64,000 nucleotides of DNA, taken from contig CAVWUP010000007.1 in NCBI GenBank assembly GCA_963758155.1, forward strand, positions 12,823 through 76,822, in the 5' to 3' direction. The position numbers and the translations under genes were made by a program. Below the pieces are notes generated by a model. The model was not told the DNA's origin and ran no database searches. It worked only from the letters and a program-made list of their open reading frames with translations. Origin of the DNA: an uncultured delta proteobacterium. Lineage in GTDB: Bacteria > Myxococcota_A > Polyangia > Fen-1088. Below, piece after piece: positions 26,864 through 54,757 of this stretch. Within the stretch, counting starts at the first letter, position 1. Each line of letters starts with the position of its first letter.

Positions 26864-28252
26864 TCACTCGGTTTTTGGGTTTTCAGTCCTGCAAGTTTCA
26901 AGTCCCGTCCACCCCGCAAGACCCCTCGGGAGAAATCCCGAGGGGTTTTGTGTATTTGGAGCGCTGACGTCAACCTCGGTGGAGCCCTCACCAGAGCCAT
27001 TTTCGTTGGCTGGCAGCACAGTGGCAGCAGATTTCTTCGCATCCGGTGCTGACGGCTGCAACCGCGTGCTATCCGGCGTGGTGGCCTTGGGTTCGAAGGC
27101 CAGTCTGTCGATCTCGCTGCGCAGGTAGCCGGGCAGGAGGTGCCCGTACACCTCAGTGGTGATCCTGGGGTCGCTGTGTCGCAGGATCTTCTGCACCGCC
27201 GCCGGGTTCGCGCCCGCCATCAGCAACAGCGATCCAGTCGTGTGGCGAAGATCGTGGAATCGAATCTGACGAACCTGGGCTTTGGGCCACAGCTTCATCC
27301 GGTGGGTCGGGCAATGACGAAGCTCCGCGTCCGCCGCCGCTTCCTTGTGAGCGCAACCCTTCTTGCGGCAGACGTGCTGATAGCCGGTGGCGAAGCCCGC
27401 GTGGATGAGGGCACGTCGGAGCACATCCTCCAGCGGGGTGTGCCGCGACAACATCGAACCATCCGGAGCCGGGAAGACCAGATCTGACCGCGATGCCGCG
27501 ATGGCGGCCCGCAGGTAGGGGACAAGCTCGGCCGCGATCGGGATCGATTCGGCATGGCCGCCTTTGGTGGTGTCGTGGTCGTAGGACCGCACCACGGTGA
27601 TTAGGCCGGTCGAGAAGTCGACGTCCGATTTGAGCAGGCCCAGCAGTTCTCCCTTCCTGAGCCCCGTGTAGATCGCCGTCGCGAACAGCGGTCGCCACTT
27701 CGACGGCACGGCCCGCAGCACGGGCGGCACCTCGTGAAGCCGCAGGAACTCGGGCTTTCCCTTCGGCACGCGGCGCCGCCGGACATCCTCGACCGGATTC
27801 GCGCCCTGCCACTTGCCGGCCCGCCTCGCGCAGTTGAAGGCGGTGAGCAGGAAACGGCGCAGATGGTTCAGCGTTTGGGGCGCTAGCTTGTCCGCCCTTT
27901 CTTGTAGGAAAGCCTCGATCTTCCCTGAGGTCACCTCGACCAGAAGCAGATCGGCGATCCCAGGCGAAGCGAAATGCTTGCCGAGTGTGGAAACGTTCCG
28001 ATCGTGCGAGGGCGATCCGACCGAGTACGTCTGGAGCCACCAGGTCAGGAGTTCGCCCAGCCTGCCACCACCATCCTCGGGTGGCAGCGTCTCCAGCCCC
28101 AGCCGCGCGCGTTCGAAACGGGTTTCGAGTTCGCCGACGAGACGCTTCGCCTCGATCTTCGTGCGGGCAGTGGACGACCTGTCCCGCCACCGGCCGTGCT
28201 GGTCGCGGTAGCGGAGGTACCATCTGCCTCTTTTCACGTACACGGAAGCCAT
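26864..28252 (-). CDS. int: tyrosine-type site-specific integrase
   Basis: N-terminal SAM-like domain, catalytic R...HDLRHT...TTEVYGHL box. The last ~60 aa is low-complexity read-through. Confidence 0.9.
   Translation of the reverse strand: MASVYVKRGRWYLRYRDQHGRWRDRSSTARTKIEAKRLVGELETRFERARLGLETLPPEDGGGRLGELLTWWLQTYSVGSPSHDRNVSTLGKHFASPGIADLLLVEVTSGKIEAFLQERADKLAPQTLNHLRRFLLTAFNCARRAGKWQGANPVEDVRRRRVPKGKPEFLRLHEVPPVLRAVPSKWRPLFATAIYTGLRKGELLGLLKSDVDFSTGLITVVRSYDHDTTKGGHAESIPIAAELVPYLRAAIAASRSDLVFPAPDGSMLSRHTPLEDVLRRALIHAGFATGYQHVCRKKGCAHKEAAADAELRHCPTHRMKLWPKAQVRQIRFHDLRHTTGSLLLMAGANPAAVQKILRHSDPRITTEVYGHLLPGYLRSEIDRLAFEPKATTPDSTRLQPSAPDAKKSAATVLPANENGSGEGSTEVDVSAPNTQNPSGFLPRGLAGWTGLETCRTENPKTE
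26921..26957 (+). terminator. GC hairpin (CCCCTCGGG-agaaat-CCCGAGGGG) followed by TTTTGTGTATTT
   Basis: Read directly. Lies inside the 3' tail of the integrase ORF. Confidence 0.4.
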
Positions 28253-28275
28253 GACGTTCTCGATCCACTCTCCAG

Positions 28276-28521
28276 CTAGCGCGGGTGCCGAATCGTAGCA
28301 GATGCCGCCCGGGGCGCAGGTGAAGAACAACCCGCGGAAACATGCTCCCGGATTGCAGCGGGGTCGAAGCGCACCAACGCGCCCACCCGGATGTGGGGCA
28401 GAAGGCCGCATTCGAGCCGGTGGTACACCCAACTCCGCGACACTTTCAGGTATGCAGCCACCTCGGTCACCGTCCACAAGCCGTCGGACACGGGAACGTC
28501 GTTCGTGTTGATCGTGTTCAT
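28276..28521 (-). CDS. xis: excisionase / AlpA-like HTH protein
   Basis: LWTVTEVAAYLKVSRSWVYHRLECGLLPHIRVG HTH, directly upstream of int. Confidence 0.7.
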   Translation of the reverse strand: MNTINTNDVPVSDGLWTVTEVAAYLKVSRSWVYHRLECGLLPHIRVGALVRFDPAAIREHVSAGCSSPAPRAASATIRHPR

Positions 28522-29458
28522 AGTGATCGCCTCGCAATGACAACTCGCGACTCTCGAAGCCGAAGTCGTAGGTGGGGAAACCGCCAGCGGGGCGGCGTGA
28601 GGCCGCCATCAAGCGCCCAATGGCGCGGACACACCGTTCGAGATCCGACTCGGCCGTCCTCTTGTCGTCGAGGCGGATGGTTCCCGAACGCGCTGCCAGC
28701 GCGGGCAAGGCGCATGCCCAGAACCGCCGGACTCGCGAACGCCGCCAGCGGTTTCCCCGTGCAGCCCACCGCAAGACGACCATGCTCCCGCCCGGTGACC
28801 GCACGTCGCTCGATCCGGGCTACTGCCCGGACGCGCGCGTCGTGATGTCCACCGACCTGAAGGCATCCGGAACCGCAACGTGAACCGTTGCCCAGTACGC
28901 CAGCAGTCCCAGTAGGACTACCGCCGCGGTCAATGCCAGGCATTGGGATCCGAATTGCCGCCAAGTCAGCTCTTTTCGATAATGAGTGTGAGGCATAGTA
29001 AGAGCGAGTCCGGCGACTCCGATACCATGCGCGCCACCCGGGCACATGCAGGAGCACGGCGAGTCCGCCGTGGGCTACAGCTTCTGCGGGCGGGCCGGCA
29101 ACGGCCACACACCCGACTCGCGGTCGGACGCCGGCCCAGACTTCGCCAGGACCAGCGGTCCATACGCGGGCGAGGTTCTGGGGGCCTAGTCGCGCTCCGA
29201 TTCCAAAAAGGAATAGGCAGGGATCGCGGTCGGGCGGCGTGAAGCCGGAGCGCGGGCGCTCCCCGCGGTACAGTCCGACGATGCGCGAATTCATCTGGCC
29301 GCTCGGTCCTTTGGCCGGAGGCTCAGCGGGGCGCATCATAGGTCGGATCGTCCGGGCGGACATCCGTCGCTGACCGGGCTCGCGGATCCGACCGCGCTCC
29401 CCTAGGGCCACCATCTCCCGACTGCGATGCGCAACCGCTCCGCTCTTCCCCTTCAGAA

Positions 29459-29707
29459 TCAGGGCTTGAGCCGCCACACGCCAGGCGAGACCCACTCCAC
29501 GAGCGGATCTCGTTGAACGCACTGCCGGATCTTTGCTTTCCAGTGTGGATTGATTTTCGTCCGTGGGTTGGCCTCCAGCGCGGCGTAGAGCGTGGCAAGA
29601 GGAGCCACGCCGCCGCAGCGTTGGAGCGCACCGCGGACGAGAGTTCGCCAGCTTGGCGAAACCGGCGTCACGTTCGACGTCGATGTTACGGGTTTGGTCG
29701 TGGTCAT
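29459..29707 (-). CDS. small HARE-HTH-like winged-helix protein
   Basis: ...TLYAALEANPRTKINPHWKAKIRQ...VEWVSPGVWRLKP resembles the HARE-HTH C-terminal signature. Confidence 0.35.
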   Translation of the reverse strand: MTTTKPVTSTSNVTPVSPSWRTLVRGALQRCGGVAPLATLYAALEANPRTKINPHWKAKIRQCVQRDPLVEWVSPGVWRLKP

Positions 29708-30167
29708 ATGCGTAGTCGGTTAAGAAACGAGCCCGGTCACGCAAAGGACGAACAGCCCGGAGCACCGCGAGAGCAGCCGAGATACGGCATCCCATAACTA
29801 GTAAATGGCTGTTGCGGGCCATCTGTTACTCCAACGGCTGCCGACCCGCTTGGAAGCGGTCCGTCCGGTGTTCGGCGAACCCGGGGCACGCTGTTGGGCC
29901 ACAACCCGCGTCCCGCCGCGTACCCCACACATGGGCGCCGACCACTCACTCCTTGATCATGCGCCGGCGAGGAGCGTCCGTCGCCGATCACTCGGGAAAC
30001 TCCTCTGCTGGACCCGTACCATGATCCAACATTCCTCTCAAGCGCGCACGTTCGGTGTCACCCGCCGCGTCGCAGGACGAAGCAATGTTCGCGATCCAGA
30101 TTGGCTGGGGAACGATCTGCTATGCAACGGCGGGGCGCGAGCACCGTCCGCCGTAACGGCGGTGAGT

Positions 30168-31052
30168 CTAGGAAGCCTCGACGACGTACTTGGCTTCGAG
30201 GTCACCTGCGTATTCTCGCAGGGCAGCCGGACACTGGGCATCGCTCCGGAGATAAGCGAGCACGTCCTCGATGGCGACAGCGGCCACGCGCTCGCGCGTG
30301 CTTGGATGAAGCGCAGCAAGCGCTACAGTCAGCTTGTCCCAGAGCCGGGTGTTCGCACGGGGGAGGAGAAACACAAGCTTCGAGCCGGGCAGCAGGATTA
30401 TGTGCCACACGTTGCGCAGAAACTGGTATGCGCGGAAGAACTCGGGTTCCTGAAGCATTCGTCCGTCGACATGGCCGCTCAAGGGCCGACGGTAGATGAC
30501 CTCGAGTTTGCGCCGATGCTTTTCGTCGGTGCTGGCCCTCCCAAAGTCGGCTTCGGACAACTTCACCTCACACATCACCACGGTTCCGTCGGCGAGTTGC
30601 CACTTGGCATCCAGATTCGTGCCTTCGTCCTTGTCTGGAATCGACTCGGGCTCCCACGATTCGAGCGGTGGCGCTTGCCCAAGTGCGCGAAGGAGTGAAG
30701 AACTCCCCGCTTTTGGGCCGCCGAAGAATGGGAAGAATAGATTGAACGCGAATGCCTGTGACGAATTCAGATGGTGGAAGTAGCGGTGCAACCGGACCTC
30801 GCCATTGGCGGCCAGGTGGGCTTTGACGAGGGGTTGTGCCAGGCCGAGCAGATTCGCCCACTTCTTGGCACGTGGCAGCACGTGTTCCTTGGGGACAGCT
30901 CTCCCGCGGTACTGAAACGTCCCCGGTTCGCGAATGCGAAGCACCGAGTACTTATACCTGATGAGGTGCGCGAGGAGCCGTGCTCGATATTCCATGAATG
31001 CCTGTGCGTCTTCGTGCCTCTGAATCTGATCCCGACCTCGGATCATCTTCAC
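30168..31052 (-). CDS. hypothetical protein, possible PD-(D/E)xK nuclease fold; low-GC gene
   Basis: GC clearly below neighbours. VVMCEVKLSEADFG motif is D/ExK-like. Confidence 0.45.
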   Translation of the reverse strand: MKMIRGRDQIQRHEDAQAFMEYRARLLAHLIRYKYSVLRIREPGTFQYRGRAVPKEHVLPRAKKWANLLGLAQPLVKAHLAANGEVRLHRYFHHLNSSQAFAFNLFFPFFGGPKAGSSSLLRALGQAPPLESWEPESIPDKDEGTNLDAKWQLADGTVVMCEVKLSEADFGRASTDEKHRRKLEVIYRRPLSGHVDGRMLQEPEFFRAYQFLRNVWHIILLPGSKLVFLLPRANTRLWDKLTVALAALHPSTRERVAAVAIEDVLAYLRSDAQCPAALREYAGDLEAKYVVEAS

Positions 31053-31088
31053 CCAGCCGGTGGGTCAATCTCGGTGGCGAAATCGTGT

Positions 31089-31331
31089 CTAGGTCTGATC
31101 TCGCGTTCTAACCCTTCCGGCTGCGCGGGTCGCTTCCCTCGCTGTCTTTCTGTCGGATGGTGCCATTGCGCCCTGAACGACGAGTTCTGAGCGCTCATTC
31201 TTGGCCAACTCGCGGCCGCGCTCGATCATTTCCGCTTGGGTTTGGCCAACGGCGCTTGCTTTGGCGTTTCCGGCTTTCTTCGCCTGCCAACCCCCGTCCC
31301 TGTGTGGTCCCACAAATACGTTCTTTCCCAT
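31089..31331 (-). CDS. DUF2188 family protein
   Basis: MGKNVFVGPHRDGGWQAKKAGNAKASAVGQTQAEMIERGRELAKNERSELVVQG matches the DUF2188 consensus. Confidence 0.75.
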   Translation of the reverse strand: MGKNVFVGPHRDGGWQAKKAGNAKASAVGQTQAEMIERGRELAKNERSELVVQGAMAPSDRKTAREATRAAGRVRTRDQT

Positions 31332-31685: not shown

Positions 31686-34600
31686 TCACGCGTCTTGTAA
31701 CCTGACGACATGAACACCATTCCCTAACACCTGCTGCGCGATGGCGACGAGGTGCTCATGGTGGGTGAAAAACAGCACCTGGGTGTGCATCGCGAGGTCC
31801 GAGAGCACGCGAAAGGCAGCCGCGGCTCTCTGGTTATCGTAATGCGCCAGTAGATCGTCCGCGACGAACGGTAACGCCAGCGACGATTCGAGGTGCATCT
31901 CAAGAGCGGCGATTCTCAGAGCAAGGTAGAGCTGGTCTGCGGTCCCAGTACTCATGCTGCCCACGACGACGCGCTGGCTGTTGCGGCGGATTCCCGCCAG
32001 ACGCGGTTCATCCTTCTCGTCCAGTTCGGCTGCCAGTTGCACAAACTCGCCGAGGGTCAGGATCGAAAATAGGCCACTCGCGCGCGCGAGTAGTGGGCCC
32101 TGTTTCTCCCGGCGAAAGCGCTCGATGGCCCAACGGAGCAGAACGAGGGCCACGCGCACTCGGATGTAGCGCTCCATGGTCTCGGTCATACTAGCGATCG
32201 CCTCATTGCGCTGCGCGGCCGCGGTGGCGGCGTCGGCTTGGCCGGCTATCGCCTCCAGTTCGCGCTGTGCATCCTTCAACGAGACCACCAACCCCTTCTG
32301 CTTGTCCGACTGATCCTGGTGATCCTGGCGCGCCTTCGCGAGCGCGAGATCGAGCAGCGACCGGTCTTCCGCGGCCAATTCGGCTACGAGTTCGTCCAGC
32401 GTAAGACCATCTCCCGTCTCGATCAGATGTTGTTCCGTCGTATCAAGTTCGCGCTGCAGTTGCCGACGTCGTTGTGAAAGCTCGATCGCCGCAGTGAGAT
32501 CGGACAGACTCCCGACCCCCGCGCTCTCCAACAGCGGCTGCAGACGCGACTGGGCCTCTTGCCTCTTCGTGACTTCCTGACGGTGCTCATCTTGGAGATC
32601 CCCAATCCGCACAATCGCCTCATCCCGCACACGCTTGGATTCCTCGGCCGAAGCTAGGCGCAGTTCCAACTCCCGGGCCGCATCCATCGGTTCTCGACCC
32701 TGGAGTTCAGGCGCGACGGCACGGACAAGCCGAGCAATCTCCTGACCGAACACTTCGAGGTCCCGGAGCATCGTTTCGATTCGCGTTTTCTCTATGCTGC
32801 CGATCTCCCGTAGTTTTCCGTCGAGATCTTGCATCAGCGACAGCGCGCGAGAAGGTACATCGGGCTCCGTGGCCTGGGGCAGACCGAACTCCGCAAGGCA
32901 TCTTGCGAGATTTTTCTGCCACTCGACCATCGCCCGTTCGGCCTCCCCGTGTCTGGCCTCGAGATCAGGAAGAGACTGGTCCAGGCTCTTGAGCTGGTTG
33001 ACGAGCGCCTGTTGGCGTGTCCGCTCATCGTCGAGCGCTCGAACCGTCTCATCCGCGAAACCGACCAGGCCTGCAAACCCACGCCCTTCAACCTCTGCGT
33101 CAGCAACCCCAGCCGCAGTCAGCGCCTCGCGTAGTCCCTGCGCTGCCGCCTCCACATCACGATCGTGTCGCTCGACCTCGTCCCTTGCGCGCTCAAACAC
33201 CGAAGCGTCGTCGAGCGCCTTCTCACGGCGCACGATCCATGCCCGAAGTTTGGCCGGCGTCTCCAGAGAAATGCCGAACCCCGCTTGAAGCCGCGCGAGA
33301 TCACTCAGCGCCGTCTCCTCTTCCAACTTGAGTTCGCGCAGACGAGTGTCGGCAGCTTCCAGTCGATGGGCACACGTCTCAATGTCGGCACGAACCTGTT
33401 GTAGGGTGACGGAAGCCTCGGCGGCATCGAACCGCCGGTCGGCCAGCAGGTCGACATCCCGCACCAGCGTCTCGAACTCGCCCAGCCTTGCTGCACTCGG
33501 CTGAGTAGTGGAGTCAACGCCCTTCTCGACAGAAGATCGCAACAACCGCCAGTTCTCGTCGCGTCGAGCGCGCGCGTGTGCGAGATCCTCTGCAGTCACC
33601 GGTTGCTCATCCCGCTCGACCTGGCGCTCCTGGAGCCGCCGTTGTTCTAGGGTCTGCGCCTCGGCCGCTCGCCCCGAGCGCGTTGCCTCCTGGTCCTTCG
33701 TGAGCCGCCGAACCCGTTCTGCAATCGCATCTAGTTCCTCCTCAGTCGGAGGCACAATCCGGCGGAGGGCTTCCAGGTCCCCGCTCCAGGGGGCAAGTTG
33801 ACCGAATGCGATGCGCATTTTCTTCTCTGCAGTCGCAACTGGCGTCTCCAGAGCACGCCGTCGAGCATCGGCATCGCCGAGCTTACGGGCCGCGGCGATG
33901 GCGTCGCAGAGAGACCCAGGAGATCCCCTGTCGCGCGACGGGTCGCGTTCCAGAGCCACTTGGCGGCGTTCGCTGCGTTTCTCTGCGAGAGCTTGCCCGG
34001 CTGCGACGCTCGTGGCAGCAAGGCCAGCGTGGCGCCCAAGGAGGTGGGAGAGATCCTCCCGCGCCAATTCGGAGGGAATCCGTCCACGCCATTCGGCCAG
34101 CGTTCCTGCGGGCCAACCGAGGCGTGTGGCAAGCTCACCAGCCTGCATTGTCAGCTGTTGACTCTCCGCCCGCCTCTTCGCAATCCCCTCGGCATGACCC
34201 GTCAGCCTATGCCTCTCCCGCGTGCTGGCCCGAATGTCTTCCACCAGGGCTAGCACCCCCTCGTCAACCAGCGTCGTGTCCCGCCTCCCCGCAGCCTTTT
34301 CAAGATCGCCGGCAATACGCGCACACGCCCCGTCGGCGAGCGCGATCTCCGTCATAGCATCCCGCACCTGTTTGTCGGCCGTCTCGGGGAGAAGAGGAAT
34401 CCTCGCCAGCCCGGTCAGATCTTCGCGCAGGTGGGTCCTTCGAGCGAGCGCGGCCGCAACACGTTTGACCCTCTCGAGGTGAGCGCATTGCCGAACGAGT
34501 CGCTTCAGCTCAGCATCCCCCTCGTTCACGGCCTTTTCGGCCTCCTGGACTTTTCGCTCCGCCTCCCTGAAGTCCTTCGCCCGAACGATCGTGTCCCGCA

Positions 34601-35186
34601 GTGCCGTGTCGGCCGAGTTGAGTAGATCAAGTGCGACGTAGTACCGCCGGCTCGCGTTGCGGCGCGGACCCCACAGCTCCTCGGCCTGACTTTCGAGGTT
34701 CTCGAACACCTCGCCGAATCGGGCCAGACCACCGCTCGCCTGGAAGAGCATCCGCCCGATATCGTCCCTGGCGTCAAGCAACTGTTTACCGCCGTTCACC
34801 AGTCCTGCATGGTCCAGGCTAAACATGCGCTCGAAAAGCGCACGATCGGTGCTGCCAAGGAAGGGCGCCAGCACGGAATCAGCGAGCACACCCTCGCTGT
34901 CGTCGAGCAACGTGTTCTTGATACCCTTGCGCCGCCGGAAGGAGAGTCGCTGATTCCCTTGCTCAAGCACCGCACCGATGCGCATCGACTTGGTATCGTG
35001 GAGAAATGAGTATGGCGTGTTGCCTGCTATGTTGAACAACACGTCGGAGAGGGCCGCACGCGTCGTCGACTTCCCCGCCTCGTTCGGACCGACGACGACG
35101 TGAAAGTCCGGCACGTGCGCCGGAAGTTCAACAACCCGATCGGTGAAGCACCCGTAGCGAGCAAGGTCAAGACGAGCGACGCGCAT
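31686..35186 (-). CDS. SbcC/YhaN-like SMC-family AAA ATPase
   Basis: Walker A GPNEAGKST, about 900 aa of coiled coil, C-terminal signature/Walker B (MSTGTADQLYLALRIA...PFVADDLLAHYD). Confidence 0.85.
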   Translation of the reverse strand: MRVARLDLARYGCFTDRVVELPAHVPDFHVVVGPNEAGKSTTRAALSDVLFNIAGNTPYSFLHDTKSMRIGAVLEQGNQRLSFRRRKGIKNTLLDDSEGVLADSVLAPFLGSTDRALFERMFSLDHAGLVNGGKQLLDARDDIGRMLFQASGGLARFGEVFENLESQAEELWGPRRNASRRYYVALDLLNSADTALRDTIVRAKDFREAERKVQEAEKAVNEGDAELKRLVRQCAHLERVKRVAAALARRTHLREDLTGLARIPLLPETADKQVRDAMTEIALADGACARIAGDLEKAAGRRDTTLVDEGVLALVEDIRASTRERHRLTGHAEGIAKRRAESQQLTMQAGELATRLGWPAGTLAEWRGRIPSELAREDLSHLLGRHAGLAATSVAAGQALAEKRSERRQVALERDPSRDRGSPGSLCDAIAAARKLGDADARRRALETPVATAEKKMRIAFGQLAPWSGDLEALRRIVPPTEEELDAIAERVRRLTKDQEATRSGRAAEAQTLEQRRLQERQVERDEQPVTAEDLAHARARRDENWRLLRSSVEKGVDSTTQPSAARLGEFETLVRDVDLLADRRFDAAEASVTLQQVRADIETCAHRLEAADTRLRELKLEEETALSDLARLQAGFGISLETPAKLRAWIVRREKALDDASVFERARDEVERHDRDVEAAAQGLREALTAAGVADAEVEGRGFAGLVGFADETVRALDDERTRQQALVNQLKSLDQSLPDLEARHGEAERAMVEWQKNLARCLAEFGLPQATEPDVPSRALSLMQDLDGKLREIGSIEKTRIETMLRDLEVFGQEIARLVRAVAPELQGREPMDAARELELRLASAEESKRVRDEAIVRIGDLQDEHRQEVTKRQEAQSRLQPLLESAGVGSLSDLTAAIELSQRRRQLQRELDTTEQHLIETGDGLTLDELVAELAAEDRSLLDLALAKARQDHQDQSDKQKGLVVSLKDAQRELEAIAGQADAATAAAQRNEAIASMTETMERYIRVRVALVLLRWAIERFRREKQGPLLARASGLFSILTLGEFVQLAAELDEKDEPRLAGIRRNSQRVVVGSMSTGTADQLYLALRIAALEMHLESSLALPFVADDLLAHYDNQRAAAAFRVLSDLAMHTQVLFFTHHEHLVAIAQQVLGNGVHVVRLQDA

Positions 35187-35193
35187 TGCAGCC

Positions 35194-36459
35194 TTAGTCA
35201 CCCGCGACACGCGCCACCAAAGCGGGGGCAATCTCTCGAATGATATCGCCGAGCCGATTCTCGCGGATCGCCGAGAGCATCGGGTCTGACGCAGTCCGGA
35301 CCTCGGGCTCTAGCTTGGAGATCATCTCCGCCAGTTCCTCCTCGAGCGCACGCAGGAGGTCAGCATCGCCGGGGGCCTGCTCCAGCATGACGTGGAGATC
35401 AGCAACAGCATCCCCCCGCGCCTCGATTTCCGCCGCGCTCCATGCGGGTTCGGTCGCCAGGCGCAGTTTTTCGATCCACAAGCGCTCCGCGCCGTGTGCG
35501 AGCGCCGCCGCTTGGAGTTCGGCGCGCACGCGCGACTCGGCGCCGAAGAGCTCACCGTGAGCCGCTGTTCTGCCAAACAACGTCACTCGAGCAGCGATTG
35601 GGCGACCGCCAGCCATATCAAGCGCGGTCACGAACCGCGCCTCGGCGCGTGCGATCGCTTCGTTGGCGGTCGCGCAGCCTTGCACGTCGACGCGAATATC
35701 TTCCCAGCGCAGAACGTCTTCGACCAGACGTGACACCGAGACGATCGCGTCTCCGTCGGCCTCGACCAGCATCGCACCTCGCGCACCCGTCTCTCGCACG
35801 TTTCGCCCCTGGAGATTGCCGGGGAACACGACCCAAGGGCGCTCGCATACGATCTCGTACTCGTGCGCGTGACCGAGTGCCCAGTACTCGTACCCTCTGC
35901 CGCGCAAATCGTCGAGATCGCACGGAGCATACGGCTCGTGCCCTTCACGGCCGCCAAGTGCGGTGTGGAGCACACCTATGTTGAGCCAACCAGGAACGCG
36001 CTCCGGGTACTGCTTGACGAGATTCTCGCTGACTGCCCGCTGTCGAAAGCTCTGCCCGTGGATTGCGACGTGTAGGTCGTCGAACTTGATGGTCTCGGCC
36101 TTGCGCGATCCGAATACGTGAACATTGTCCGGCAGACGGAGGCGCAACGATGGACTGAGGTCGCTTTCGGCGTCGTGGTTTCCATAAAGGACGACGACGC
36201 GAATGTTGGCCCCCCGCAGGCGGCCCATCTGCGCGGCAAAGAAGAGCCCCGTGTTGAAGTCTTTCCACGTGCCGTCATACAGGTCACCTGCGATGACCAC
36301 GAAGTCGACTTGTCCAGTGATCGCTTCATCAATCAAACCCTCGAAAGCTCGCCGGGGGGCCGTACGCAGCATGTCGAGCGGAGCCTCCGGGCACGAGCTG
36401 AGTCCGGACAGCGCACTGTCGAGGTGGACATCGGCGGCGTGGATGAATCGGATAGGCAT
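35194..36459 (-). CDS. SbcD/Mre11-like metallophosphoesterase nuclease
   Basis: IHAADVHLD, IAGDLYD, GNHD and ALGHAHE phosphoesterase motifs. Confidence 0.85.
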   Translation of the reverse strand: MPIRFIHAADVHLDSALSGLSSCPEAPLDMLRTAPRRAFEGLIDEAITGQVDFVVIAGDLYDGTWKDFNTGLFFAAQMGRLRGANIRVVVLYGNHDAESDLSPSLRLRLPDNVHVFGSRKAETIKFDDLHVAIHGQSFRQRAVSENLVKQYPERVPGWLNIGVLHTALGGREGHEPYAPCDLDDLRGRGYEYWALGHAHEYEIVCERPWVVFPGNLQGRNVRETGARGAMLVEADGDAIVSVSRLVEDVLRWEDIRVDVQGCATANEAIARAEARFVTALDMAGGRPIAARVTLFGRTAAHGELFGAESRVRAELQAAALAHGAERLWIEKLRLATEPAWSAAEIEARGDAVADLHVMLEQAPGDADLLRALEEELAEMISKLEPEVRTASDPMLSAIRENRLGDIIREIAPALVARVAGD

Positions 36460-37516: not shown

Positions 37517-37833
37517 GGCAGCACCACGGCCAATTCGCACGTCTCACAGGGGAACCAGTCCGCCTCGGAACCACAAATCTCGCAGCGGCCGACCCAGCCA
37601 AGGTACTGGCCGTGGCAGGTCACGCATTCCCAACGCGCAGCTACCGCGTTCGCGTGGCCATTCGGACAAGCGAGAGATGCCGCCCAGAATGCCGGCAGGT
37701 TCTTAAGCCAACGAACGGCCCGCGGAAAAAAAGCCACCGCCACGAACACACCCACGATGGCGAACACGGGCGTCATGATGAGCATTACCCCCACGCGCGT
37801 GACCGAGATGCGCTTTGCCGCGGGCCCCGTCAT
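37498..37833 (-). CDS. membrane-anchored zinc-ribbon protein
   Basis: TM helix, then CPNGH...CVTCHG...CEICG...CETC. ATGA overlap with the upstream ATPase stop. Confidence 0.5.
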   Translation of the reverse strand: MTGPAAKRISVTRVGVMLIMTPVFAIVGVFVAVAFFPRAVRWLKNLPAFWAASLACPNGHANAVAARWECVTCHGQYLGWVGRCEICGSEADWFPCETCELAVVLPWRKFE

Positions 37834-44522: not shown

Positions 44523-44523
44523 G

Positions 44524-46917
44524 ATGGCCGAGATCAGGGCGCCTCGAACCTTTTTCCTGAACGAAGCCCACGAGCACGCGCGGGGCGAGAAGAAGGGTGG
44601 AGGCGGGGTTCCCAAGTACGCCTCGATCAACTGGCAAGCGAAGGGCGAGCGCATCGCCAAATCCCTGAGGGCAGCGCGAACCGCCGTTCGGCAGTCGCCG
44701 GACCCGGTTCGGGAAACTCGCTTCTTCCTGCTTTCGAAGGCCGAGGCCAAGATCGAGAAGTTCTCCACGGACAAACGGAAGTCCAAGGACGGTCGCGTGG
44801 TCGAGGAGATCCACCCGGCCGGTAAGCACGCTGGGATTTTCCAACGGCTGGGGCTCGACCTTCTTGGGGTGACAGACCGGGGAGAAGCCTTGGTGCACGC
44901 CGAGGCCGACAGACTAGATCGCCTGCTCGCAACCGCGGATGCTCTGGGCTCGGCGGGCCCGCGCGAACAAGCCCGATGGGCGCTTCTGTCGGACTTTCAG
45001 CCCGCGCCGCCCGAGACGCGCGCCGACCCCGAGTGGATCTCGTCCATCCCGCTGAAGACAACAGTGGAGGCCATCGTCGAGATTCAACCGCTCCTCCTGC
45101 GCACGGAGGTTGAGGCCGTGGCCAAAGCTCTGCGCGATTCTATCGCCGGCGATGGCCGCCAGGCAGTCCTCGCAGCCGGGCGGGACTTCTCGGGCCGCAG
45201 TTGGTTCCGCATGCGGCTCTTGCGGCAGACCGTGGACGCGTTTGCCAGGCAGTTCCAGTCAATCCAGTCGATCCACCCCCCACTACGGTCGCCCCTGGCT
45301 GCGGTGAACACCAAGGCGCCCGCGGTCGCAGGCGGCGTCGCGGTTCCACCGATCACAGACGCCAATCTTCCGGCGGTCGCCATCGTGGACGCGGGCATTC
45401 CGCAACAACACCCAGTCCTTGCCCGCTATCGGCGAGGACAATTCCTGCATGCGGAAGCAGGACAACCAGGAACCGACGATCACGCCTCGCGAGTCGCGTC
45501 GCGCATCGTTTTTGGGGACGTCGATGCGAGTAGCGCGGGGTATGTGCCGCCACCCGGCCGGTGTCAGTTCCTGGACGTGGTGGTCCCCGCTTTCCCGGGG
45601 AGCATTGGCAAAATCCCCACCATTGATCTCGACAACAAGGCTATCCAGGATGTCATCGGCGACGTCACGCGCAACTACCCCGACGTGCGCGTGTTCGACT
45701 TCAGCTTCGGAAGCCATCAACCCCTGTCGCGGTTGACTGCCGTGCAAAGGCGCGAGGAACTCATTGGGGTCCAGGATCTCGACAACTTCATCTTCGCGAA
45801 CGACGTGCTTGTCGTCGTGGCGGCCGGAAACTCGCCGCGCGGAGCTGTTCCAAACCAGCAGTACCCGGGGCATGTCGACGATCCAGATTGGGGTCTCGGT
45901 GCCTGGGCGTGCGGGTTCAACACGCTGGTCATTGGTTCCTACGTGGGGCAGCCCCACTCAGACGGCCTGGCCGGACACACCGGGTGGCCAAGCCCGTTCA
46001 CCCGCATCGGCCCAGGGTTGGCGGAAGCGCCGGTCCCCAGCTTCTCTGCGAGCGGCGGCGATTCGACGAGGAACTACGGCTACCAAAGCCCGCTGGGGGT
46101 CTGGACCTGCGGACGTACCGGGTTGTGGGAGGATGCCGTTGGAACCTCGTTCGCCGCGCCGATTGTCGCCCGCGAAGCCGCGATCCTTCTCCAGCAACTC
46201 CAGCGGCACTGCGCACCGGGAATCCCGTGCTTCGCAGCGACAGCGAGGGCATTCTTGCGGCTGGTCGCACGGCGATCTGGCGACCAGCCGTTTCCGCCCC
46301 GTGTCCGGAAACTCGCTGACCTGACGCTCGGACACGGACTGCCCACCGCCGAGCGGCTTGCCCGCCCTCGCGCATCGAGCGCAGTGCTCGTTTGGCAGGG
46401 GACTCTGGAAGATCCTGCGTCGATCGCGCGGGTGCGTGTGCCCGTGCCGCTCGCCTGGGTGGCAGCCGCGCAGCACCCCAGCCTGCGGGTCGTCTGTGCC
46501 TGGAATACACCGGTGAGTGCGGCCGCGCCTGATGTCTGGGCCAGCCGCAAGGTGGTCATGCACCTCAAGCCCACGCTCGGAGCGGAGGCGATCCGGGGCA
46601 AGGGCAAGTCCCACAGGAGCTACCCGATCACCGACAGGGTGTGGCGGCTTGATCGGGATGAGGAGGGCGAACCACGGGCCACGCCACCGTCCGACGAGTG
46701 GGTGGTAGAGTTATTCTACGAGGACGTCGGACCCTATCCCGCCACCCTCCAGATCTCGCCTCAGCAGCAAGTTTCGCTGGTGATGGAGCTGTTCGACGAT
46801 TCGAGCACCCCGATCAGTCCCCAGGAGGAATTGCAGAAGCTGCCCATCGCGGAAACGATGATTCGCCTCGCGGGCGTGGCGCGCGAGGTCCAGGTGCCGG
46901 TGAAGATCCGCGTGTAG
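44524..46917 (+). CDS. subtilisin-like (S8) serine peptidase
   Basis: AIVDAGI (Asp), HASRVASRI (His), GTSFAAPIVA (Ser). 1-nt gap after the AAA+ gene. Confidence 0.9.
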   Translation: MAEIRAPRTFFLNEAHEHARGEKKGGGGVPKYASINWQAKGERIAKSLRAARTAVRQSPDPVRETRFFLLSKAEAKIEKFSTDKRKSKDGRVVEEIHPAGKHAGIFQRLGLDLLGVTDRGEALVHAEADRLDRLLATADALGSAGPREQARWALLSDFQPAPPETRADPEWISSIPLKTTVEAIVEIQPLLLRTEVEAVAKALRDSIAGDGRQAVLAAGRDFSGRSWFRMRLLRQTVDAFARQFQSIQSIHPPLRSPLAAVNTKAPAVAGGVAVPPITDANLPAVAIVDAGIPQQHPVLARYRRGQFLHAEAGQPGTDDHASRVASRIVFGDVDASSAGYVPPPGRCQFLDVVVPAFPGSIGKIPTIDLDNKAIQDVIGDVTRNYPDVRVFDFSFGSHQPLSRLTAVQRREELIGVQDLDNFIFANDVLVVVAAGNSPRGAVPNQQYPGHVDDPDWGLGAWACGFNTLVIGSYVGQPHSDGLAGHTGWPSPFTRIGPGLAEAPVPSFSASGGDSTRNYGYQSPLGVWTCGRTGLWEDAVGTSFAAPIVAREAAILLQQLQRHCAPGIPCFAATARAFLRLVARRSGDQPFPPRVRKLADLTLGHGLPTAERLARPRASSAVLVWQGTLEDPASIARVRVPVPLAWVAAAQHPSLRVVCAWNTPVSAAAPDVWASRKVVMHLKPTLGAEAIRGKGKSHRSYPITDRVWRLDRDEEGEPRATPPSDEWVVELFYEDVGPYPATLQISPQQQVSLVMELFDDSSTPISPQEELQKLPIAETMIRLAGVAREVQVPVKIRV

Positions 46918-48421: not shown

Positions 48422-49144
48422 ATGGAGCATAGGAAGGAGAACCTTCACGCGGGTCATCGGGCACGCTTGCGAAGGCGCTTTCTCGATGAGGGGCTCGACG
48501 CCTTCGAGGACCACCAGGTCCTCGAGCTGCTCCTGTTCTTCGCCATTCCCCGTCGGGACACCAACGAACTCGCCCATCTCCTGCTGCGCCGCTACGGCTC
48601 CTTCTCTGCCGTGCTCGATGCCGACCCCGTCGATTTTGCGCAGACTGAGGGGGTTGGCGAGGCTGCGGCGACGCTGCTGTCGCTCGTGCCCGCCCTGACT
48701 CGGCGGTACTCGATGGATCGCACGCGCCAAGAGCGGCAAACGCTGAACACGAGCGAGCGGGCAGCCGAGTTCCTCGTGCCCCTTATGGCTGGCAGGAGCG
48801 AGGAGGTCTTCTACATCGTCTGCCTCGATACCCAGTGCCGGGTGATCGTCCCTGCTCTCGTTGTTGAGGGGCTGCCTGATCGCGCCCACATTGAGCCGCG
48901 CCAGGCGGTCGAGGTGGCTTTGCGCCACAAGGCACACTCGGTGATCCTGGCGCACAACCACCCCACTGGGCAGGCCAAGCCCACGACGGCCGATCACCGG
49001 GCCACCCAAACGCTCGTCAGCGCATTCGGCGCAATTGCCATCGTCGTCCGGGACCACATCATCGTGGCGGGGGAAGATTGGTACAGCTTCTCTCGTGCAG
49101 GCGACATGCCAGCTGCAAAACCAACGGGAGCACTGAACCCATGA
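48422..49144 (+). CDS. radC: RadC-like JAB domain protein (UPF0758)
   Basis: HNHPTGQAKPTTADHRAT JAMM motif with the RadC N-terminal HhH-like region. Confidence 0.85.
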   Translation: MEHRKENLHAGHRARLRRRFLDEGLDAFEDHQVLELLLFFAIPRRDTNELAHLLLRRYGSFSAVLDADPVDFAQTEGVGEAAATLLSLVPALTRRYSMDRTRQERQTLNTSERAAEFLVPLMAGRSEEVFYIVCLDTQCRVIVPALVVEGLPDRAHIEPRQAVEVALRHKAHSVILAHNHPTGQAKPTTADHRATQTLVSAFGAIAIVVRDHIIVAGEDWYSFSRAGDMPAAKPTGALNP

Positions 49145-50673
49145 AGCTCACGGACGCGCAGAAACGGGCCGTCGCGCACGCGAAGGCCAACTTGCAGCTC
49201 ATTGCTTGCGCCGGCTCGGGCAAGACGGAGGTCGTGGCCCGTTTCGTGGCGAACCTCCTCAACCCGAGGACCAAGCCGAGGGTCGTACCAGCGAACATCA
49301 TAGCGTTCACGTTCACCGAGAAGGCGGCTGCTGAGCTGAAAGAACGAATCGTGACGAGGTGTCGGGAGGAGAATGGGGATCAACCGGGACTCGCCGAACT
49401 CTATGTCGGCACCATCCACGCCTTCTGCCTGGATCTTCTCAAGACCGAAGTGCCGCGCTTCCTCAAGTTCGAGGTGCTGAATGAGGTCCAGCAGGCTCTC
49501 TTTGTCGACCGGCACAGCAAGCAGAGCGGTCTCACGACGACCACCGACCTGACAGGTCGAGTTCTTCAGCGCTACAAGGACACCGATCTCTACGTTGCCG
49601 CGCTGTCGATCCTCCGCGAGGCCCAGCTCGACGACGAAGTTCTGCGCGGCAACTCGGTCGTCACAGGTCTTAGCGCCTACAAGGCACTGCTGACCAAGGA
49701 AGACTCGTTCGATTACTCGTCGATCCTCGGCGAGGCTGTTTGCGCACTTCGAGACGATGCGGGACTGCGCGATCGGATGCGCGACCGCGTCCGCTACGTC
49801 ATCGTGGACGAGTACCAGGACGTGAACCCGATCCAGGAATGCATCGTCAAGCTGCTGCACGACTTGGGTGCGTATGTCTGCGTGGTGGGCGATGACGACC
49901 AGACCATCTACCAGTGGCGAGGCAGCGACGTCCGCAACATCCTCAACTTCGAGAAGCGCTACCCAAAGCCGAAGCAGATCCGGCTTGAGGAGAATTTCCG
50001 TTCCAGCGAGGGGATCGTCGAGACCGCACGGGACTTCATCAGCAAAAACGCCGAACGCCTTCCCAAGGCGATGAAACCAACGGATGTTCAGCCCTACGAG
50101 GCCGGCGACATCATCGCGCTCGCCTTGGCCGATCCGGACGCGGAGGCGCAGCACATCGCCGCGAGCATCAAGGCTCTTCGCGGTGTCGCCTTCAAGGAGG
50201 ACGACGCCAAGCGGGGCTTGGCTTGGTCGGATATGGCCATCCTCTTGCGAAGCGTCCGCAACAGCGCCGATCCGATCACGCGTGCGCTCTCGGCGGCAGG
50301 CATCCCTTTTGTCATCGGCGGGATGAACGATCTCTTTTCTCGGGCCGAGGCCGAGGCGGCGCGGCAGCTCTTCTACTTCATTCGCGGACGCATCGACGAG
50401 GCTGCACTGATCGCTGCCTGGAAAGCGGCGGCGCTCGGTGTCTCGAAGCGGGCAATCGACCAGGCAGTCGCGGGCGCCAAGGCCACCAAAGAAGCTCTCG
50501 ATGGAACGGACGAGAACCGCTGGAGCTATTACTCCCTGCAACGGCAGTTCCTCACCTTCCTCGAGGATTTGGAGCTGCGCGAGGAGTCGGTCCCGGACGG
50601 TCGCGGCGAGGTTGTCTTCTACAACCTCGGCAAGTTCAGTCAGCTCATCTCGGACTTCGAGACCATCCACTAA
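49141..50673 (+). pseudogene. UvrD/Rep-type SF1 helicase, C-terminally truncated
   Basis: IACAGSGKTEV (Walker A), VIVDEYQD, GDDDQTIYQWRG. Ends after about 510 aa, exactly where a transposase fragment begins. Confidence 0.7.
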
Positions 50674-51827: not shown

Positions 51828-52214
51828 ATGGAGAAGACTGAAAATTCGGCAGCGCCATCAACCAAGCGAAGGCGACGGCCCCGGGCAGCCTGGATCAAGG
51901 AGGTTCGTAGCCTTCGTGACAGCGGCTTGTCCCCCGAGGAGTACGCCGCGAGGAAGGGCATGGTGCTCAGCACGCTCAAGTTCTGGATGCGAGTCCTGAG
52001 AAACGAGGTGGAGGCGAGGACCAAGAGTGCCGTGCCCGCGTTTCTCCCGGTGAGCGTCCTGCAGGCGGCGGAGGCCCCGGCGTCCGGCGCCAACGTGATG
52101 ATCGAGGTCGACCTGGCGAATGGCCGCCGCGTGCGAATGCACGTCAGGCCGAATGCGGATTTCAAGCGAGTGTCCGAGTTGGTCGACGCGCTGGAAGGTG
52201 GGCTTCGATGTTGA
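51828..52214 (+). CDS. tnpA: IS66 family TnpA (orf1)
   Basis: Small HTH protein. Position and size as in IS66. Confidence 0.7.
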   Translation: MEKTENSAAPSTKRRRRPRAAWIKEVRSLRDSGLSPEEYAARKGMVLSTLKFWMRVLRNEVEARTKSAVPAFLPVSVLQAAEAPASGANVMIEVDLANGRRVRMHVRPNADFKRVSELVDALEGGLRC

Positions 52215-52597
52215 CCTTGCCACCAAGTGTACGGATTTTCGCGGCTGTCGAGCCAGTTGACGCCCGCAAGAGTTTTGATGGCTTGTCGGCCGTGGTGCGC
52301 GACAGCCTGGGCGGGGATCCCATGTCGGGTCATCTGTTCTTCTTCATCAACCGGCGAGGTGACATGGCGCAGATCCTGTTTTGGGACCGCACGGGATTTG
52401 TGGTGATGCGAAAACGGCTGGAGGCGGGGACATTTCGACTGGTCCGCAGCGCCGACGGCAACAAGAGCCACGTGGAGATCGATGCTGCGGAATTGGGATT
52501 GATGCTTGAAGGAATCGACTTGGGCACAGTGAAGCGGCGCAAACGGTTCAAGTGGGAGCGACAGTCAACAGTGGAGGAAGAATCAGCAACGACGTAA
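52208..52597 (+). CDS. tnpB: IS66 family TnpB (orf2)
   Basis: LPPSVRIFAAVEPVDARKSFDGLSAVVRDSLGGDPMSGHLFFFINRRGDMAQILFWDRTGFVVMRKRLE matches the IS66 Orf2 consensus almost throughout. Confidence 0.9.
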   Translation: MLTLPPSVRIFAAVEPVDARKSFDGLSAVVRDSLGGDPMSGHLFFFINRRGDMAQILFWDRTGFVVMRKRLEAGTFRLVRSADGNKSHVEIDAAELGLMLEGIDLGTVKRRKRFKWERQSTVEEESATT

Positions 52598-52606
52598 CGA
52601 TTACAA

Positions 52607-53638
52607 TTGCATTGTGTGCGAGGATTTGCGATTGCACTTCTCGCTTTGTCGCAATCGAAGTCCAAGAGCAAACAGAAGTCCTTCAGTGTAGAAGGCGCGT
52701 TGCCGGTTCCGCGGGACCTGCTGTCCGCTGGGATTGATCTCGACGCCGACATCGAGGTCGAGCGTCAACACAGAATGGAGGCGCTCAAGGCCGAGCTTTG
52801 CGCCATGGCCGCACAGGGCAACTTCGCCAATGCCATCGACAGGATGATGGGCATTGTCCTGGGCCTGGAGCAGGAAAATGAGCGGATGTCATGGCGGCTG
52901 CTGCGCGCCTTGCGCTACCGATTCGGCCGCAATACCGAAAAGCTGGCGCCTGTCGAGCTCAAGCAGCTCTATCTTGCGCTGGGCGGCGATGCTGCGGCCC
53001 CGACGCCGGCCGGCGGCCCGCTTGTGCCGGTTCCCACCGCGCCGACAGAGGAGCTGAATGCCGACGGCGAGGTCGCTGCGCCCAATAGCACCAGCAAAAA
53101 GCGGCGCAAGCGCAAGGTCGGTGGCGCCACTGTGGTCGACGACAAGGTGGAGAAGATTGTCACCAAGGTGCCTGTGCCCGAGGAGGAGCGGACTTGCGCA
53201 CTCTGCGGAGGTGCCAAGACTGTTTTTGAAACCGTCGAGCACCAGCGCATCGAGTTCGTGCCGGCCAAGGTCGTCCTGCACATTGAGCAGCGCGAGAAGA
53301 TGACTTGCCTGGCTTGCCGCAAAGACGTCAGCATTGCCCCGCGCACTCAGGCTCCCGCTGTGATTCGCAAGGTCGGCTCCTCGTTTCTCGCCAAGCTCCT
53401 GACCGACAAGTGCGCGCTCGGCTTCCCAATGCCGCGCGCACCAGACTCGCCCAGCCTCTGGCCCGAGTTGCCCAGGGCTCGCCCAACTCCAAAGTTGGGC
53501 AAACTATTGAATCATTCTAGGAAGTTGCAGGCGTGCCCCACTGCCCGACGACTTTTGGCCTTCCTCAGACAAGACGGGATTCAACCTGGGGTTTGCGCCA
53601 TATCAGGAGAAGTCATCGGGCAACGGGGCAGCCAATGA
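52607..53638 (+). pseudogene. tnpC: IS66 family transposase TnpC, truncated or frameshifted
   Basis: Leucine-zipper and CALCGG...C..C zinc-finger N-terminal half. Homology ends near 53400. Confidence 0.65.
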
Positions 53639-53831
53639 TTCCGGCAACTTGTGTTGTTGGGCAAGTCTCGGGCAAGTGTTGGGCAAGGCTTGGGTGATGC
53701 GCTTGTTGGGCTCGCGAATCTGCGCGCAGACGGGATCCCTGGCCACGCCCTCGAGAATGTTCTGGGAAATGCTGATGACCGGTCGCCTGCGGTAATCCAA
53801 GAGCGCCTCGCTGACAATGCCTGACAGAAGC

Positions 53832-54398
53832 CTACGGTGTCGAGCGGTTGGGCGGCAAGCCCGTCCCCCGTCCCTTGGTCTGGAAACCGATCTGCCGCTT
53901 GGGTTTCTCCGGCGTGGCCATCAGGCTGCGGACGGCGTCGAACAAGGTCACTATGTTTTTGTCGTGGGACGCGATCTGCTTCTCCAGCTCTTCCAGTTTG
54001 GCCGCGAGCTGGCGATGGGAGGCCAGGAATCCCCTGAGCCGGACGAAGACGCGGACCACCTCGACGCTCATCTGCACGGCCTTGGTCGAGTTCAGCACGG
54101 ATGCGGCCATGACGGCGCCGTGCTCGGTGAAGGCGGTTGGCAGGTACTTCCGGTGCTCGCCTCGACCGGGCTTTAAGGTCGCAATTTGCGACCTTAGAGC
54201 GGCGCCCTCTTCCTTGGTCAAGACGAAGGCGAAGTCAGGGGGAAATCGGTCGGCATTCCGTTTCACCTGCTCGTTCAATCGCTTGACGGGCACGCCGTAC
54301 AAGGCGGCCAGGTCGGAATCGAGGATCACCCTGTGTCCGCGCAGGACGAGGATCGTCCGCTCCACCCGTTCCAGCGGGGCGAGGCTGGGCGTGCTCAC
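53832..54398 (-). CDS. ORF6N-domain (KilA-N/antirepressor-like) protein
   Basis: ILVLRGHRVILDSDLAALYGVPVKRLNEQVKRNADRFPPDFAFVLTKEE matches the ORF6N consensus. Confidence 0.8.
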   Translation of the reverse strand: MSTPSLAPLERVERTILVLRGHRVILDSDLAALYGVPVKRLNEQVKRNADRFPPDFAFVLTKEEGAALRSQIATLKPGRGEHRKYLPTAFTEHGAVMAASVLNSTKAVQMSVEVVRVFVRLRGFLASHRQLAAKLEELEKQIASHDKNIVTLFDAVRSLMATPEKPKRQIGFQTKGRGTGLPPNRSTP

Positions 54399-54595
54399 TT
54401 TTCGGTCGCTTTCTTGGCGTCGTAGTCAGCCCGGCCCTTCTCCAGCCACTCCTCGGCCAGGGCGGAGTAGGTCTGCCGTTTCTCGGTCGCGGCCCGCTTG
54501 AGCGCCTTGAGCAGCGCTGGCGGCAGGCACAGCAAGATCTTGTCGTGGTTGAGGGGCTTCCGCGGCATTTGCTTCGTTCGCTTCACTCTCAACAT
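54395..54595 (-). CDS. ribbon-helix-helix (CopG-like) protein
   Basis: AGGAGG ribosome-binding site 7 nt before the second ATG. ...LLCLPPALLKALKRAATEKRQTYSALAEEWL. 4-nt overlap with ORF6N. Confidence 0.6.
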   Translation of the reverse strand: MLRVKRTKQMPRKPLNHDKILLCLPPALLKALKRAATEKRQTYSALAEEWLEKGRADYDAKKATEK

Positions 54596-54757
54596 TATCC
54601 AACCTCCTGAAAACAGCAAGGTTTCCGGTGATGTGGATATAACTATATCAAATGTTATATCCATTTGGTAAGCTATCGGTGGAGGTCAAGAACATGCCGA
54701 GCCCCGCCGTTACCATTCCGCTCAAAAACATCTTCTTCCATTGATGATGGTGCAACG

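Follow-up and report, generated by a model that had tools for sequence, protein, structure and literature searches.

A probable integrative island with defence-type cargo and a tRNA-Asp attachment core inside its integrase gene, from an uncultured member of the Myxococcales/Polyangia

The Mx8/Mx9 style of integration has so far been known from a few Myxococcus phages. The attB site of Mx8 reportedly lies in tRNA-Asp genes, a location that Magrini et al. are said to have described in 1999 and that is backed here only by 16 nt of antisense tRNA-Asp T-arm in the Mx8 int gene. The attP site of this phage lies within int itself, and integration creates a new 3' end for the gene (PMC6070905). Islander makes an explicit exception for integrases with attP inside int, as in Mx8, and tandem islands at one tRNA gene (tDNA) are a known phenomenon (PMC4383910). 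Here we describe a locus of this style in a 64,000-nt stretch of DNA, hereafter the window, from an uncultured delta proteobacterium (assembly GCA_963758155.1, contig CAVWUP010000007.1, positions 12,823-76,822 of the forward strand; G+C content about 63%, 0.631). An earlier note, made from the letters alone, had proposed an integrative, possibly mobilizable element at 26864-54664 and had left its attachment site open. We estimate a probability of roughly 70% that the window from 26.9 kb rightwards is the integrase-proximal part, at least 27 kb long, of a site-specific integrative genomic island of Myxococcales/Polyangia. The attachment site can now be placed at the T-loop-to-3'-end segment of a tRNA-Asp, inside the integrase open reading frame (ORF); on the integrase side the attachment core and the crossover interval are resolved.

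The recombination module stands at the left edge of the island. A tyrosine integrase of 462 aa is encoded on the minus strand at 26864-28252 (Pfam Phage_integrase 4.5e-20, together with Int_N), and its catalytic Arg199, HxxR motif (R336) and Tyr369 are invariant in the integrase alignment. A 646-aa version of this ORF starts too early, since the alignment with relatives begins at residue 1 of the 462-aa form, which an independent gene call also gives. The 462-aa gene call and a 100% identical copy are also present in L010, an independent contig of a metagenome-assembled genome (MAG). The adjoining gene (28276-28521, minus strand) encodes an excisionase-like HTH_17 protein (Pfam 3.6e-08) and keeps its place beside int in more than 20 related loci. 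When metagenomes were scanned with the integrase, 35 related loci were recovered; IMG/VR yielded a single relative, at 38% identity. The proposal of an integrative island that is driven by an integrase and an excisionase and carries defence cargo is borne out, and profile searches bear out nearly every gene that had been named.

The target of this integrase became apparent from four relatives, L011, L012, L013 and L033, whose integrases are 96, 83, 81 and 74% identical in amino acid sequence to that of the window (the last over a C-terminal piece). In each of them an intact tRNA-Asp(GTC), detected with ARAGORN, converges on the integrase 3' end. Nucleotide homology between these loci and the window ends exactly at 26897, to the left of which the window has unrelated sequence where the tRNA would have its 5' part. 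The attachment core is the 21-nt segment at 26897-26917 (plus strand; TTCAAGTCCCGTCCACCCCGC), which is identical to the 3'-terminal 21 nt of the four intact tRNA genes, from T-loop to 3' end. No tRNA had been evident at the int-proximal end when the sequence was first read, and no intact tRNA gene is indeed found there or anywhere else in the window, but the 3' fragment of tRNA-Asp had escaped notice. Rfam likewise found no family at gathering score in the window, with only sub-threshold noise at 26400-27100.

The core is followed by a tRNA-type terminator hairpin (26918-26960, plus strand; stem 26921-26957, -28.7 kcal/mol), which forms part of the identity block carried by the element. Its stem is conserved in eight loci, one pair covarying between G-C, G-U, U-A and A-U. 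By its fold and conserved stem, the hairpin is the tRNA's own terminator, carried by the element. The left limit of homology at 26897 is complemented by L046, a contig from another sample whose sequence equals that of the window (100% identity) as far as 26926 and first departs from it at 26927; together, these limits place the crossover within 26897-26926.

As had been suspected, the 3' end of int as annotated contains the core, with the ORF ending at 26864 and reading through the hairpin at 26921-26957. Approximately 85 codons lie past the catalytic Tyr, and the last 25 or so span the terminator, the core, which in the integrase frame encodes ...AGWTGLE, and 33 nt of flank, with the stop 10 codons past the core. 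In the tRNA-adjacent relatives the ORF extends for 44-88 codons through the antisense tRNA. The C-terminal tail of the integrase depends on the sequence that lies beyond the core.

An exact-protein look-up of AbiEii, encoded to the left of the core, retrieved L046 and a further contig, L047, both from other samples, in which the same site holds different DNA. Identity to the window is 99.65% over 10.5 kb for L047 and 99.9% over 3.6 kb for L046, in both cases up to 26959/26960, with unrelated sequence thereafter; L046 shows four differences in the hairpin after 26926 and then diverges completely. To the right of the core, L047 carries a PIN/Phd pair. L046 instead carries a 482-aa ORF (6699-8147 of that contig) with Phage_int_M and Mx8-Int-like catalytic motifs, which also crosses this core but in a different frame; a weak HTH_17 gene and nitroreductase, Mrr, ArdA and HepT-like genes come next. 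Three near-identical strains carry three different occupants, and the site is a strain-variable landing pad at which a strain-level exchange of defence cargo is documented.

Just inside the element, a direct-repeat pair of TGGCAGCA with 11-nt spacing (27011-27029, plus strand) is the single such pair in the window and is also present in L011. It may represent arm-type (P') integrase-binding sites, a reading suggested by a more distant relative: in L025 (47% identical), TGCTGCA occurs twice, 11 nt apart, on both arms of a complete 6.7-kb element that is flanked by tRNA-Thr and its ~45-nt 3' fragment. As L025 shows, this integrase family forms bounded islands. In L046 and L047 (10519-10700), a GTCACAG-N5-GTCACAG pair and an inverted copy lie ~50 nt beyond the hairpin, positioned like the TGGCAGCA pair of the window. 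A second locus in which the core lacks a tRNA is L014, whose integrase is 79% identical; its flank features two copies of GTTGCCC and a GTTGCCCCAAATTTGGGGCAAC palindrome ~130 nt from its core.

The flank on the left of the core (24134-26896) comprises VapBC, a 68-aa ORF, a 171-aa ORF, AbiEii and a 326-nt spacer, here called X. It is 99.7-100% identical in L046, L047 and L048, and since it is present there without this integrase, it lies outside the element. L003, L004 and L006, which are relatives from other species, lack this flank: their synteny with the window stops at 24133, 25 nt past the stop codon of a cation-efflux gene (23185-24108). The product of that gene is 96% identical to its counterpart in a fen 'Myxococcales bacterium' MAG (L003) and matches more weakly in other Myxococcales MAGs, while a protein identical to one of the island is listed in NCBI under 'Polyangia bacterium'. 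A plasmid origin was rejected, two megablast searches of PLSDB with 20-64 kb having given no match. L003 also differs from L006 by a 2.5-kb insertion (12104-14613 of PLNW01000099.1) that encodes a different, 411-aa integrase downstream of the same cation-efflux gene, replaces 380 nt and cuts a gene that is intact in L006, which makes the neighbourhood a hot spot across species.

Spacer X holds further tRNA-Asp debris. The anticodon arm (tRNA positions 28-52) is present in antisense at 26633-26657 (minus strand; 24/25 nt identical, E = 1.4e-06), 240 nt from the sense 3' fragment, and two Logan contigs from different samples stop at 26647, exactly the anticodon, which suggests a second strain-variable junction of the anticodon-loop type. 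A simple inversion was considered as the origin of this antisense scrap and rejected, as the flanks do not fit. X also contains, at 26690-26715 and 26779-26804, a perfect tandem pair of GATTCCAATTGCA and three GATGYA motifs (GATGTA/GATGCA/GATGCA) with 10-nt spacing, 93-118 nt from the core; these repeats look like arm-type sites of a different integrase. That X could be the cognate P arm, in an attP-like junction, was rejected because X does not have the TGGCAGCA pair that the family bears on both arms. The 80 nt past the core of L014 align with X in register (score 14.5 versus 7.1 +/- 1.2 for shuffles, with 0/2000 reaching it), and the 38 core-proximal nt of X are in register with the L014 flank, a likeness that would fit a shared older neighbour. 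We infer that X and the core are the far end (attR) of an older, different and decayed element whose tRNA fragment is used by newcomers.

On the right, the boundary first proposed at 54664 does not hold. It falls within a module (53832-55525) made up of an ORF6N gene (53832-54398, minus strand; Pfam 1.2e-29), a small ORF (minus strand) and orf255 (plus strand), and a homologous module recurs in the different element of L046, in the same order and orientation (66-84% amino acid identity for ORF6N and the small ORF, 35-40% for orf255). The earlier description of an ORF6N/RHH pair is correct for ORF6N, whereas the RHH (ribbon-helix-helix) label has no Pfam match. The sole strain-variable junction on this side is at 53830, where the module abuts a truncated IS66. 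There, MAG contig L055 matches the window from 53830 rightwards only, its left side being unrelated; over 53830-56078 all 21 mismatches fall within 53840-54102, with 100% identity from there to 56078, so that a mosaic zone at the 3' end of ORF6N (53830-54102) adjoins the junction. Between the truncated IS66 TnpC and the junction, 53658-53698 holds three to four YGGGCAAG repeats with 11-nt spacing.

Farther right the window encodes a Cys-rich lipoprotein, a Sua5/YciO-like protein, an RCC1-repeat protein and HU-like proteins. The predicted lipoprotein (55569-57170, 533 aa) has a Gly/Ser/Thr-rich region and a Cys-rich C-terminal half and gives no Pfam match, and the MAG contig breaks inside its gene at 56078. 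The RCC1-repeat protein (59611-60774) has seven internal repeats of ~108 nt and is encoded between two HU/IHF-like genes (59346-59705 and 61929-62423) whose first 69 nt are 86% identical, and 63150-63257 is a perfect 54-nt tandem duplication. Exact-protein look-ups of AbiEii (with its TTG start), Sua5, the lipoprotein (with two starts), the 89-aa small ORF and orf272 returned no record, and that of the RCC1 protein a 1.6-kb contig only; with the right-side look-ups failing, the right flank could not be followed.

A search for a second attachment site gave no candidate that stood up. The core has no second copy in the window at up to 3-4 mismatches, and a direct repeat of the tDNA fragment at the far end was not found at up to 4 mismatches or, above chance, by short-sequence BLAST; this far end may lie outside the window. 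An imperfect repeat of 26860-26960, which the earlier note had expected at 54-58 kb, was searched for and does not exist. Direct repeats of the integrase-proximal 400 nt amounted to chance-level 10-13-mers, and a candidate at 61738-61748 (GGTTCAAGTC) and 61823-61834 was rejected, since its local alignment scored 13.0 against 10.2 +/- 1.5 for shuffles and many tiles elsewhere score better. There are two readings of the right end: either the element exceeds 37 kb and ends beyond the window, or the IS66/ORF6N junction marks the loss of its right arm, perhaps with fusion to a neighbouring element. We lean slightly towards the second.

In the model that we favour, the tyrosine integrase and the HTH_17 excisionase would recombine an element-borne core with a chromosomal copy, this core comprising the 3'-terminal 21 nt of tRNA-Asp(GTC) together with the terminator of this tRNA. 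The chromosomal copy in this strain would be the orphan 3' fragment of tRNA-Asp, 326 nt downstream of the AbiE toxin-antitoxin module, which is most likely a relic of the far end of an older island that has decayed. The original right end, with the second copy of the core, would then have been lost or replaced at the junction between the truncated IS66 and ORF6N (53.6-53.8 kb), leaving the element trapped.

Several observations weigh against this interpretation. Neither the core nor the terminator nor the TGGCAGCA pair has a second copy in the 37 kb to the right, so that the element may be neither bounded nor excisable. No contig with an empty site was found among the comparators, all of which are metagenomic contigs or MAGs and some of which may be strain mixtures; the attempt to find one through other genomes failed, as L003, L004 and L006 do not regain synteny within 10 kb of its loss at 24133 and L007 is rearranged. 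The earlier note had named, as counter-evidence, an unchanged gene order in related strains combined with a lack of empty sites and of flanking direct repeats: gene order does differ among related strains, which have different occupants, but neither an empty site nor a flanking direct repeat was found. Finally, an intact tRNA-Asp would be expected upstream of a tandem array, and none is present in the 26.9 kb to the left, nor is any tRNA present within 10 kb of the cation-efflux gene in the other-species relatives. An origin of the orphan fragment from an older island therefore needs an extra deletion or rearrangement.

The competing explanation that survives best, tentative as it is, starts from a tandem array in which the resident neighbour was an element of the Mx8-integrase type, like that of L046. 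An IS66-associated deletion would have taken away the right arm of the present element together with the core that both shared and, as far as ORF6N, the integrase end of the neighbour, to leave two fused and immobilised remnants. This would account for the truncated IS66 TnpC, the junction at 53830, the truncated helicase described below and the order and orientation of the ORF6N module relative to the core, which are as in L046; the documented occurrence of tandem tDNA islands (PMC4383910) is in line with it. The ORF6N module is, however, just 66-84% identical at the amino acid level to that of L046, so the neighbour was not that element, and tblastn searches with four integrases found no trace of a second one in the window. 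The scenario is also assembled post hoc from several events.

We regard it as less likely than not that the element is complete and merely extends beyond the window, in which case it would reach from 26897 to past 64000, its P arm and second core would lie outside, and the IS66 remnant and the ORF6N junction would be internal scars. Tetranucleotide similarity to the left-hand core genome stays low as far as the window reaches, with its minimum at 55-63 kb, the ORF6N/small ORF/orf255 module also resides inside the element of L046, and no copy of the core or of the arm repeats was found elsewhere in the window, all of which this explanation would accommodate. Against it, the right-hand genes (lipoprotein, Sua5/YciO-like, RCC1 and HU-like) look chromosomal, and the strain-variable breakpoint at 53830, with its decaying identity, suggests a module boundary. 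A more speculative and rather doubtful idea concerns the site itself: the orphan tRNA-Asp fragment, having no tRNA function, might be kept as a dedicated landing pad at which at least two unrelated integrase lineages, the Mx9-related one of the window and an Mx8-type one, swap whole defence islands among strains that are nearly identical elsewhere, with the integrase tail that is rewritten beyond the core serving as a switch between integration and excision, as proposed for Mx8.

That the island is a self-transmissible or mobilizable element (an integrative and conjugative element, ICE, or an integrative and mobilizable element, IME) we consider distinctly improbable. In this case a Replic_Relax protein (36692-37501, minus strand; Pfam 9.8e-16) would serve as relaxase and a 517-aa P-loop ATPase of the FtsK/HerA/type IV coupling protein (T4CP) superfamily (37830-39383, minus strand; PADLOC mad8 1.9e-14) as coupling protein. 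The two genes are neighbouring and co-oriented, with a 111-aa ORF between them (minus strand, within 36692-39383), and distant homologues of the ATPase carry TrwB_AAD_bind or TraG-D_C; the ATPase itself has no T4CP Pfam match and the Replic_Relax protein has no NCBIfam name. When a 28-sequence profile of the ATPase was compared with PDB, the best match was EccC/FtsK (4.5e-18), followed by HerA, DotL (2e-4) and TrwB (1.7e-3). The earlier label of a TraD-like ATPase is accordingly right at the superfamily level, with EccC/FtsK closer than TrwB, and the protein also matches the defence model mad8. The ORFs scanned in 19-64 kb include no type IV secretion system (T4SS) or mating-pair genes, and neither a relaxase of a typed MOB family nor an origin of transfer (oriT) was identified. 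Furthermore, Replic_Relax and ATPase homologues are both missing from up to 10 kb upstream of related integrases, where the common backbone consists of xis-int only, plus an 82-aa ORF in L011, which indicates that the two genes are cargo and not backbone. By its gene content, 36692-39383 is a candidate DNA-processing or transfer module, and mobilization of the island, as the earlier note had suggested, is no more than possible.

Although core and terminator are common to several loci of the same communities and several short-read contigs break nearby, at 26647 and 26821, it is highly improbable that assembly of the metagenome created a chimera at the shared core and terminator by joining the AbiE flank to the integrase, with the element really beside an intact tRNA-Asp elsewhere, because L010, which corresponds to 26821-31137, spans the junction of X, core and int at 100% identity, including 76 nt of flank, because the exact share with the alternative occupants is just ~30 nt, less than usual assembly k-mers, and because L014 is a second, independent case of this integrase family beside a core without a tRNA.

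The cargo was assigned by profile searches (Pfam, PADLOC and NCBIfam), and the island body is an accretion of defence-type modules. Next to the excisionase gene, a 1.3-kb stretch (28570-29835) is 82% identical in nucleotide sequence to L011 and may serve the element as a regulatory region, as an origin or as a template for RNA genes. The whole interval between xis and the first nuclease gene (28570-30167) has one convincing small ORF, encoding a conserved 82-aa protein (29459-29707, minus strand; 86% amino acid identity to L011), and one 68-aa gene call. The nuclease, of the REase-ARP/PD-(D/E)XK type (30168-31052, minus strand; Pfam 9.1e-35), is an indel relative to the closest element, being missing in L011 between matches to 29835 and 31439. 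At 31123-31137, the edge of this REase-ARP/DUF2188 indel, contigs 555 and 140 of MAG GCA_049690695.1 end or start with a 15-nt overlap, and this is probably a strain-variable cargo boundary. There follows an SbcCD-like pair (31686-36459, minus strand; Pfam), also gene-called in L053, that consists of an AAA_27/SMC-like ATPase (31686-35186) and an SbcD/Mre11-like phosphoesterase (35194-36459) whose match to the NCBIfam model sbcd (2.5e-14) is under its cut-off.

Beyond the Replic_Relax and ATPase genes lies a ubiquitin-like conjugation set (39462-42999, minus strand except where indicated; Pfam, PADLOC and NCBIfam) comprising a 125-aa ORF, a JAB protein, a 165-aa ORF (plus strand), a 91-aa YukD-like ubiquitin-like protein (Ubl) and a ThiF-type E1, with JAB, E1 and Ubl within 39836-42999. 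The E1 matches ThiF (4.9e-30), JAB is borderline (24.7 bits against a cut-off of 25; 2.2e-05) and the Ubl is just a weak YukD match (0.0018); the PADLOC E1-E2 match (1.1e-08) covers only the E1 part of the models, and no E2 was recognised in the set. On the plus strand, an IetAS pair (43611-46917) consists of an AAA+ ATPase and an S8 protease in adjacent genes with one base between them (PADLOC IetA 1.3e-61, IetS 1.2e-30). RadC (48422-49144, plus strand; Pfam 5.4e-32) precedes a UvrD/GajB-like helicase (49078-50673, plus strand; UvrD-helicase 8.9e-57, GajB 2e-51) with a shortened C-terminal domain, UvrD_C being covered only over 1-150 of 350. There is no GajA beside this helicase to form a Gabija system, the gene upstream being RadC. 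The IS66-family remnant (51828-53638, plus strand) consists of orf128, TnpB (TnpB_IS66 7.9e-30) and a TnpC that breaks off behind the zinc finger (a match to zf-IS66 alone and none to a DDE domain). Three genes that had been singled out for low G+C are indeed lower than the window (0.599, 0.585 and 0.543 versus 0.631), but only mildly so. The Pfam, PADLOC and NCBIfam results for 26.8-64 kb include no capsid, terminase, tail or phage replication families.

These findings indicate that integration in the style of Mx8 and Mx9 also occurs in non-phage defence islands of uncultured Myxococcales/Polyangia from peat and soil metagenomes. With a testable attachment core and candidate arm sites, the integrase could add to the genetic tools for myxobacteria, which at present depend on the integrases of these two phages. 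As with Mx8, whose integrase is Int/IntP and whose excisionase is Uoi, the target is tRNA-Asp, the integrase ORF crosses the core and an excisionase gene sits just upstream of int, and a true Mx8-type integrase occupies the same site in L046. The shared tRNA target and the ORF that crosses the core imply that the module of the window works like that of Mx8, with an integrase of the Mx9-related branch on a non-phage island. Nevertheless, the integrase of the window is just 26% identical to Mx8 Int over 228 aa (E = 1.8e-07), its tail past the core has 10 codons where that of Mx8 has more than 110, the antisense T-arm of Mx8 lying ~115 codons before the stop, and its target is an orphan fragment and not a working tRNA gene, with no phage structural or replication genes found in the cargo.

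Among phages, Mx9 Int matches best (28% identity, covering 90% of the protein; blastp E = 2e-39). It shares with the integrase of the window a Cys4, zinc-ribbon-like insertion between the catalytic motifs, and its ORF also contains tRNA-derived sequence. This sequence differs in being the antisense 5' half of tRNA-Gly(CCC), not the 3' end of tRNA-Asp; the Mx9 ORF runs on into a C-terminal HTH_17-like domain, and Mx9 is a phage. In the Mx9 int region (L051, AY247757.2, ~1990-2250), the antisense 5' half of tRNA-Gly(CCC) is followed by an excisionase-like HTH segment, which Mx9 integration would sever from the catalytic domain. The integrase of the window is related to Mx8 and Mx9 Int only distantly, at the subfamily level.

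The locus shares with the tDNA islands found by Islander an integrase that abuts a tDNA 3' identity block, a crossover in the T-loop region, relatives that restore the intact tRNA and a site that is reused by different elements. It departs from them in that the pair of intact tDNA and displaced fragment is absent from the window, which has one fragment and an antisense scrap only. Its cargo resembles that of defence islands in having a clear match to IetAS and other modules of kinds that cluster there, but besides IetAS no module has the full gene set of a named system: the GajB-like helicase stands without GajA, E1 and JAB without an identified E2, and the AAA_27 ATPase and phosphoesterase are matched to no named system. 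Measured against the bacterial Ubl systems of the Bil, CBASS Cap2-Cap3 or 6A-MBL type, the conjugation set has a visible E1, a borderline JAB and a weak Ubl, with no recognised E2. As a whole, the element is of the ordinary tDNA island kind, driven by an integrase and an excisionase and loaded with defence cargo, and fits the current understanding of how such islands work, which it leaves unchanged.

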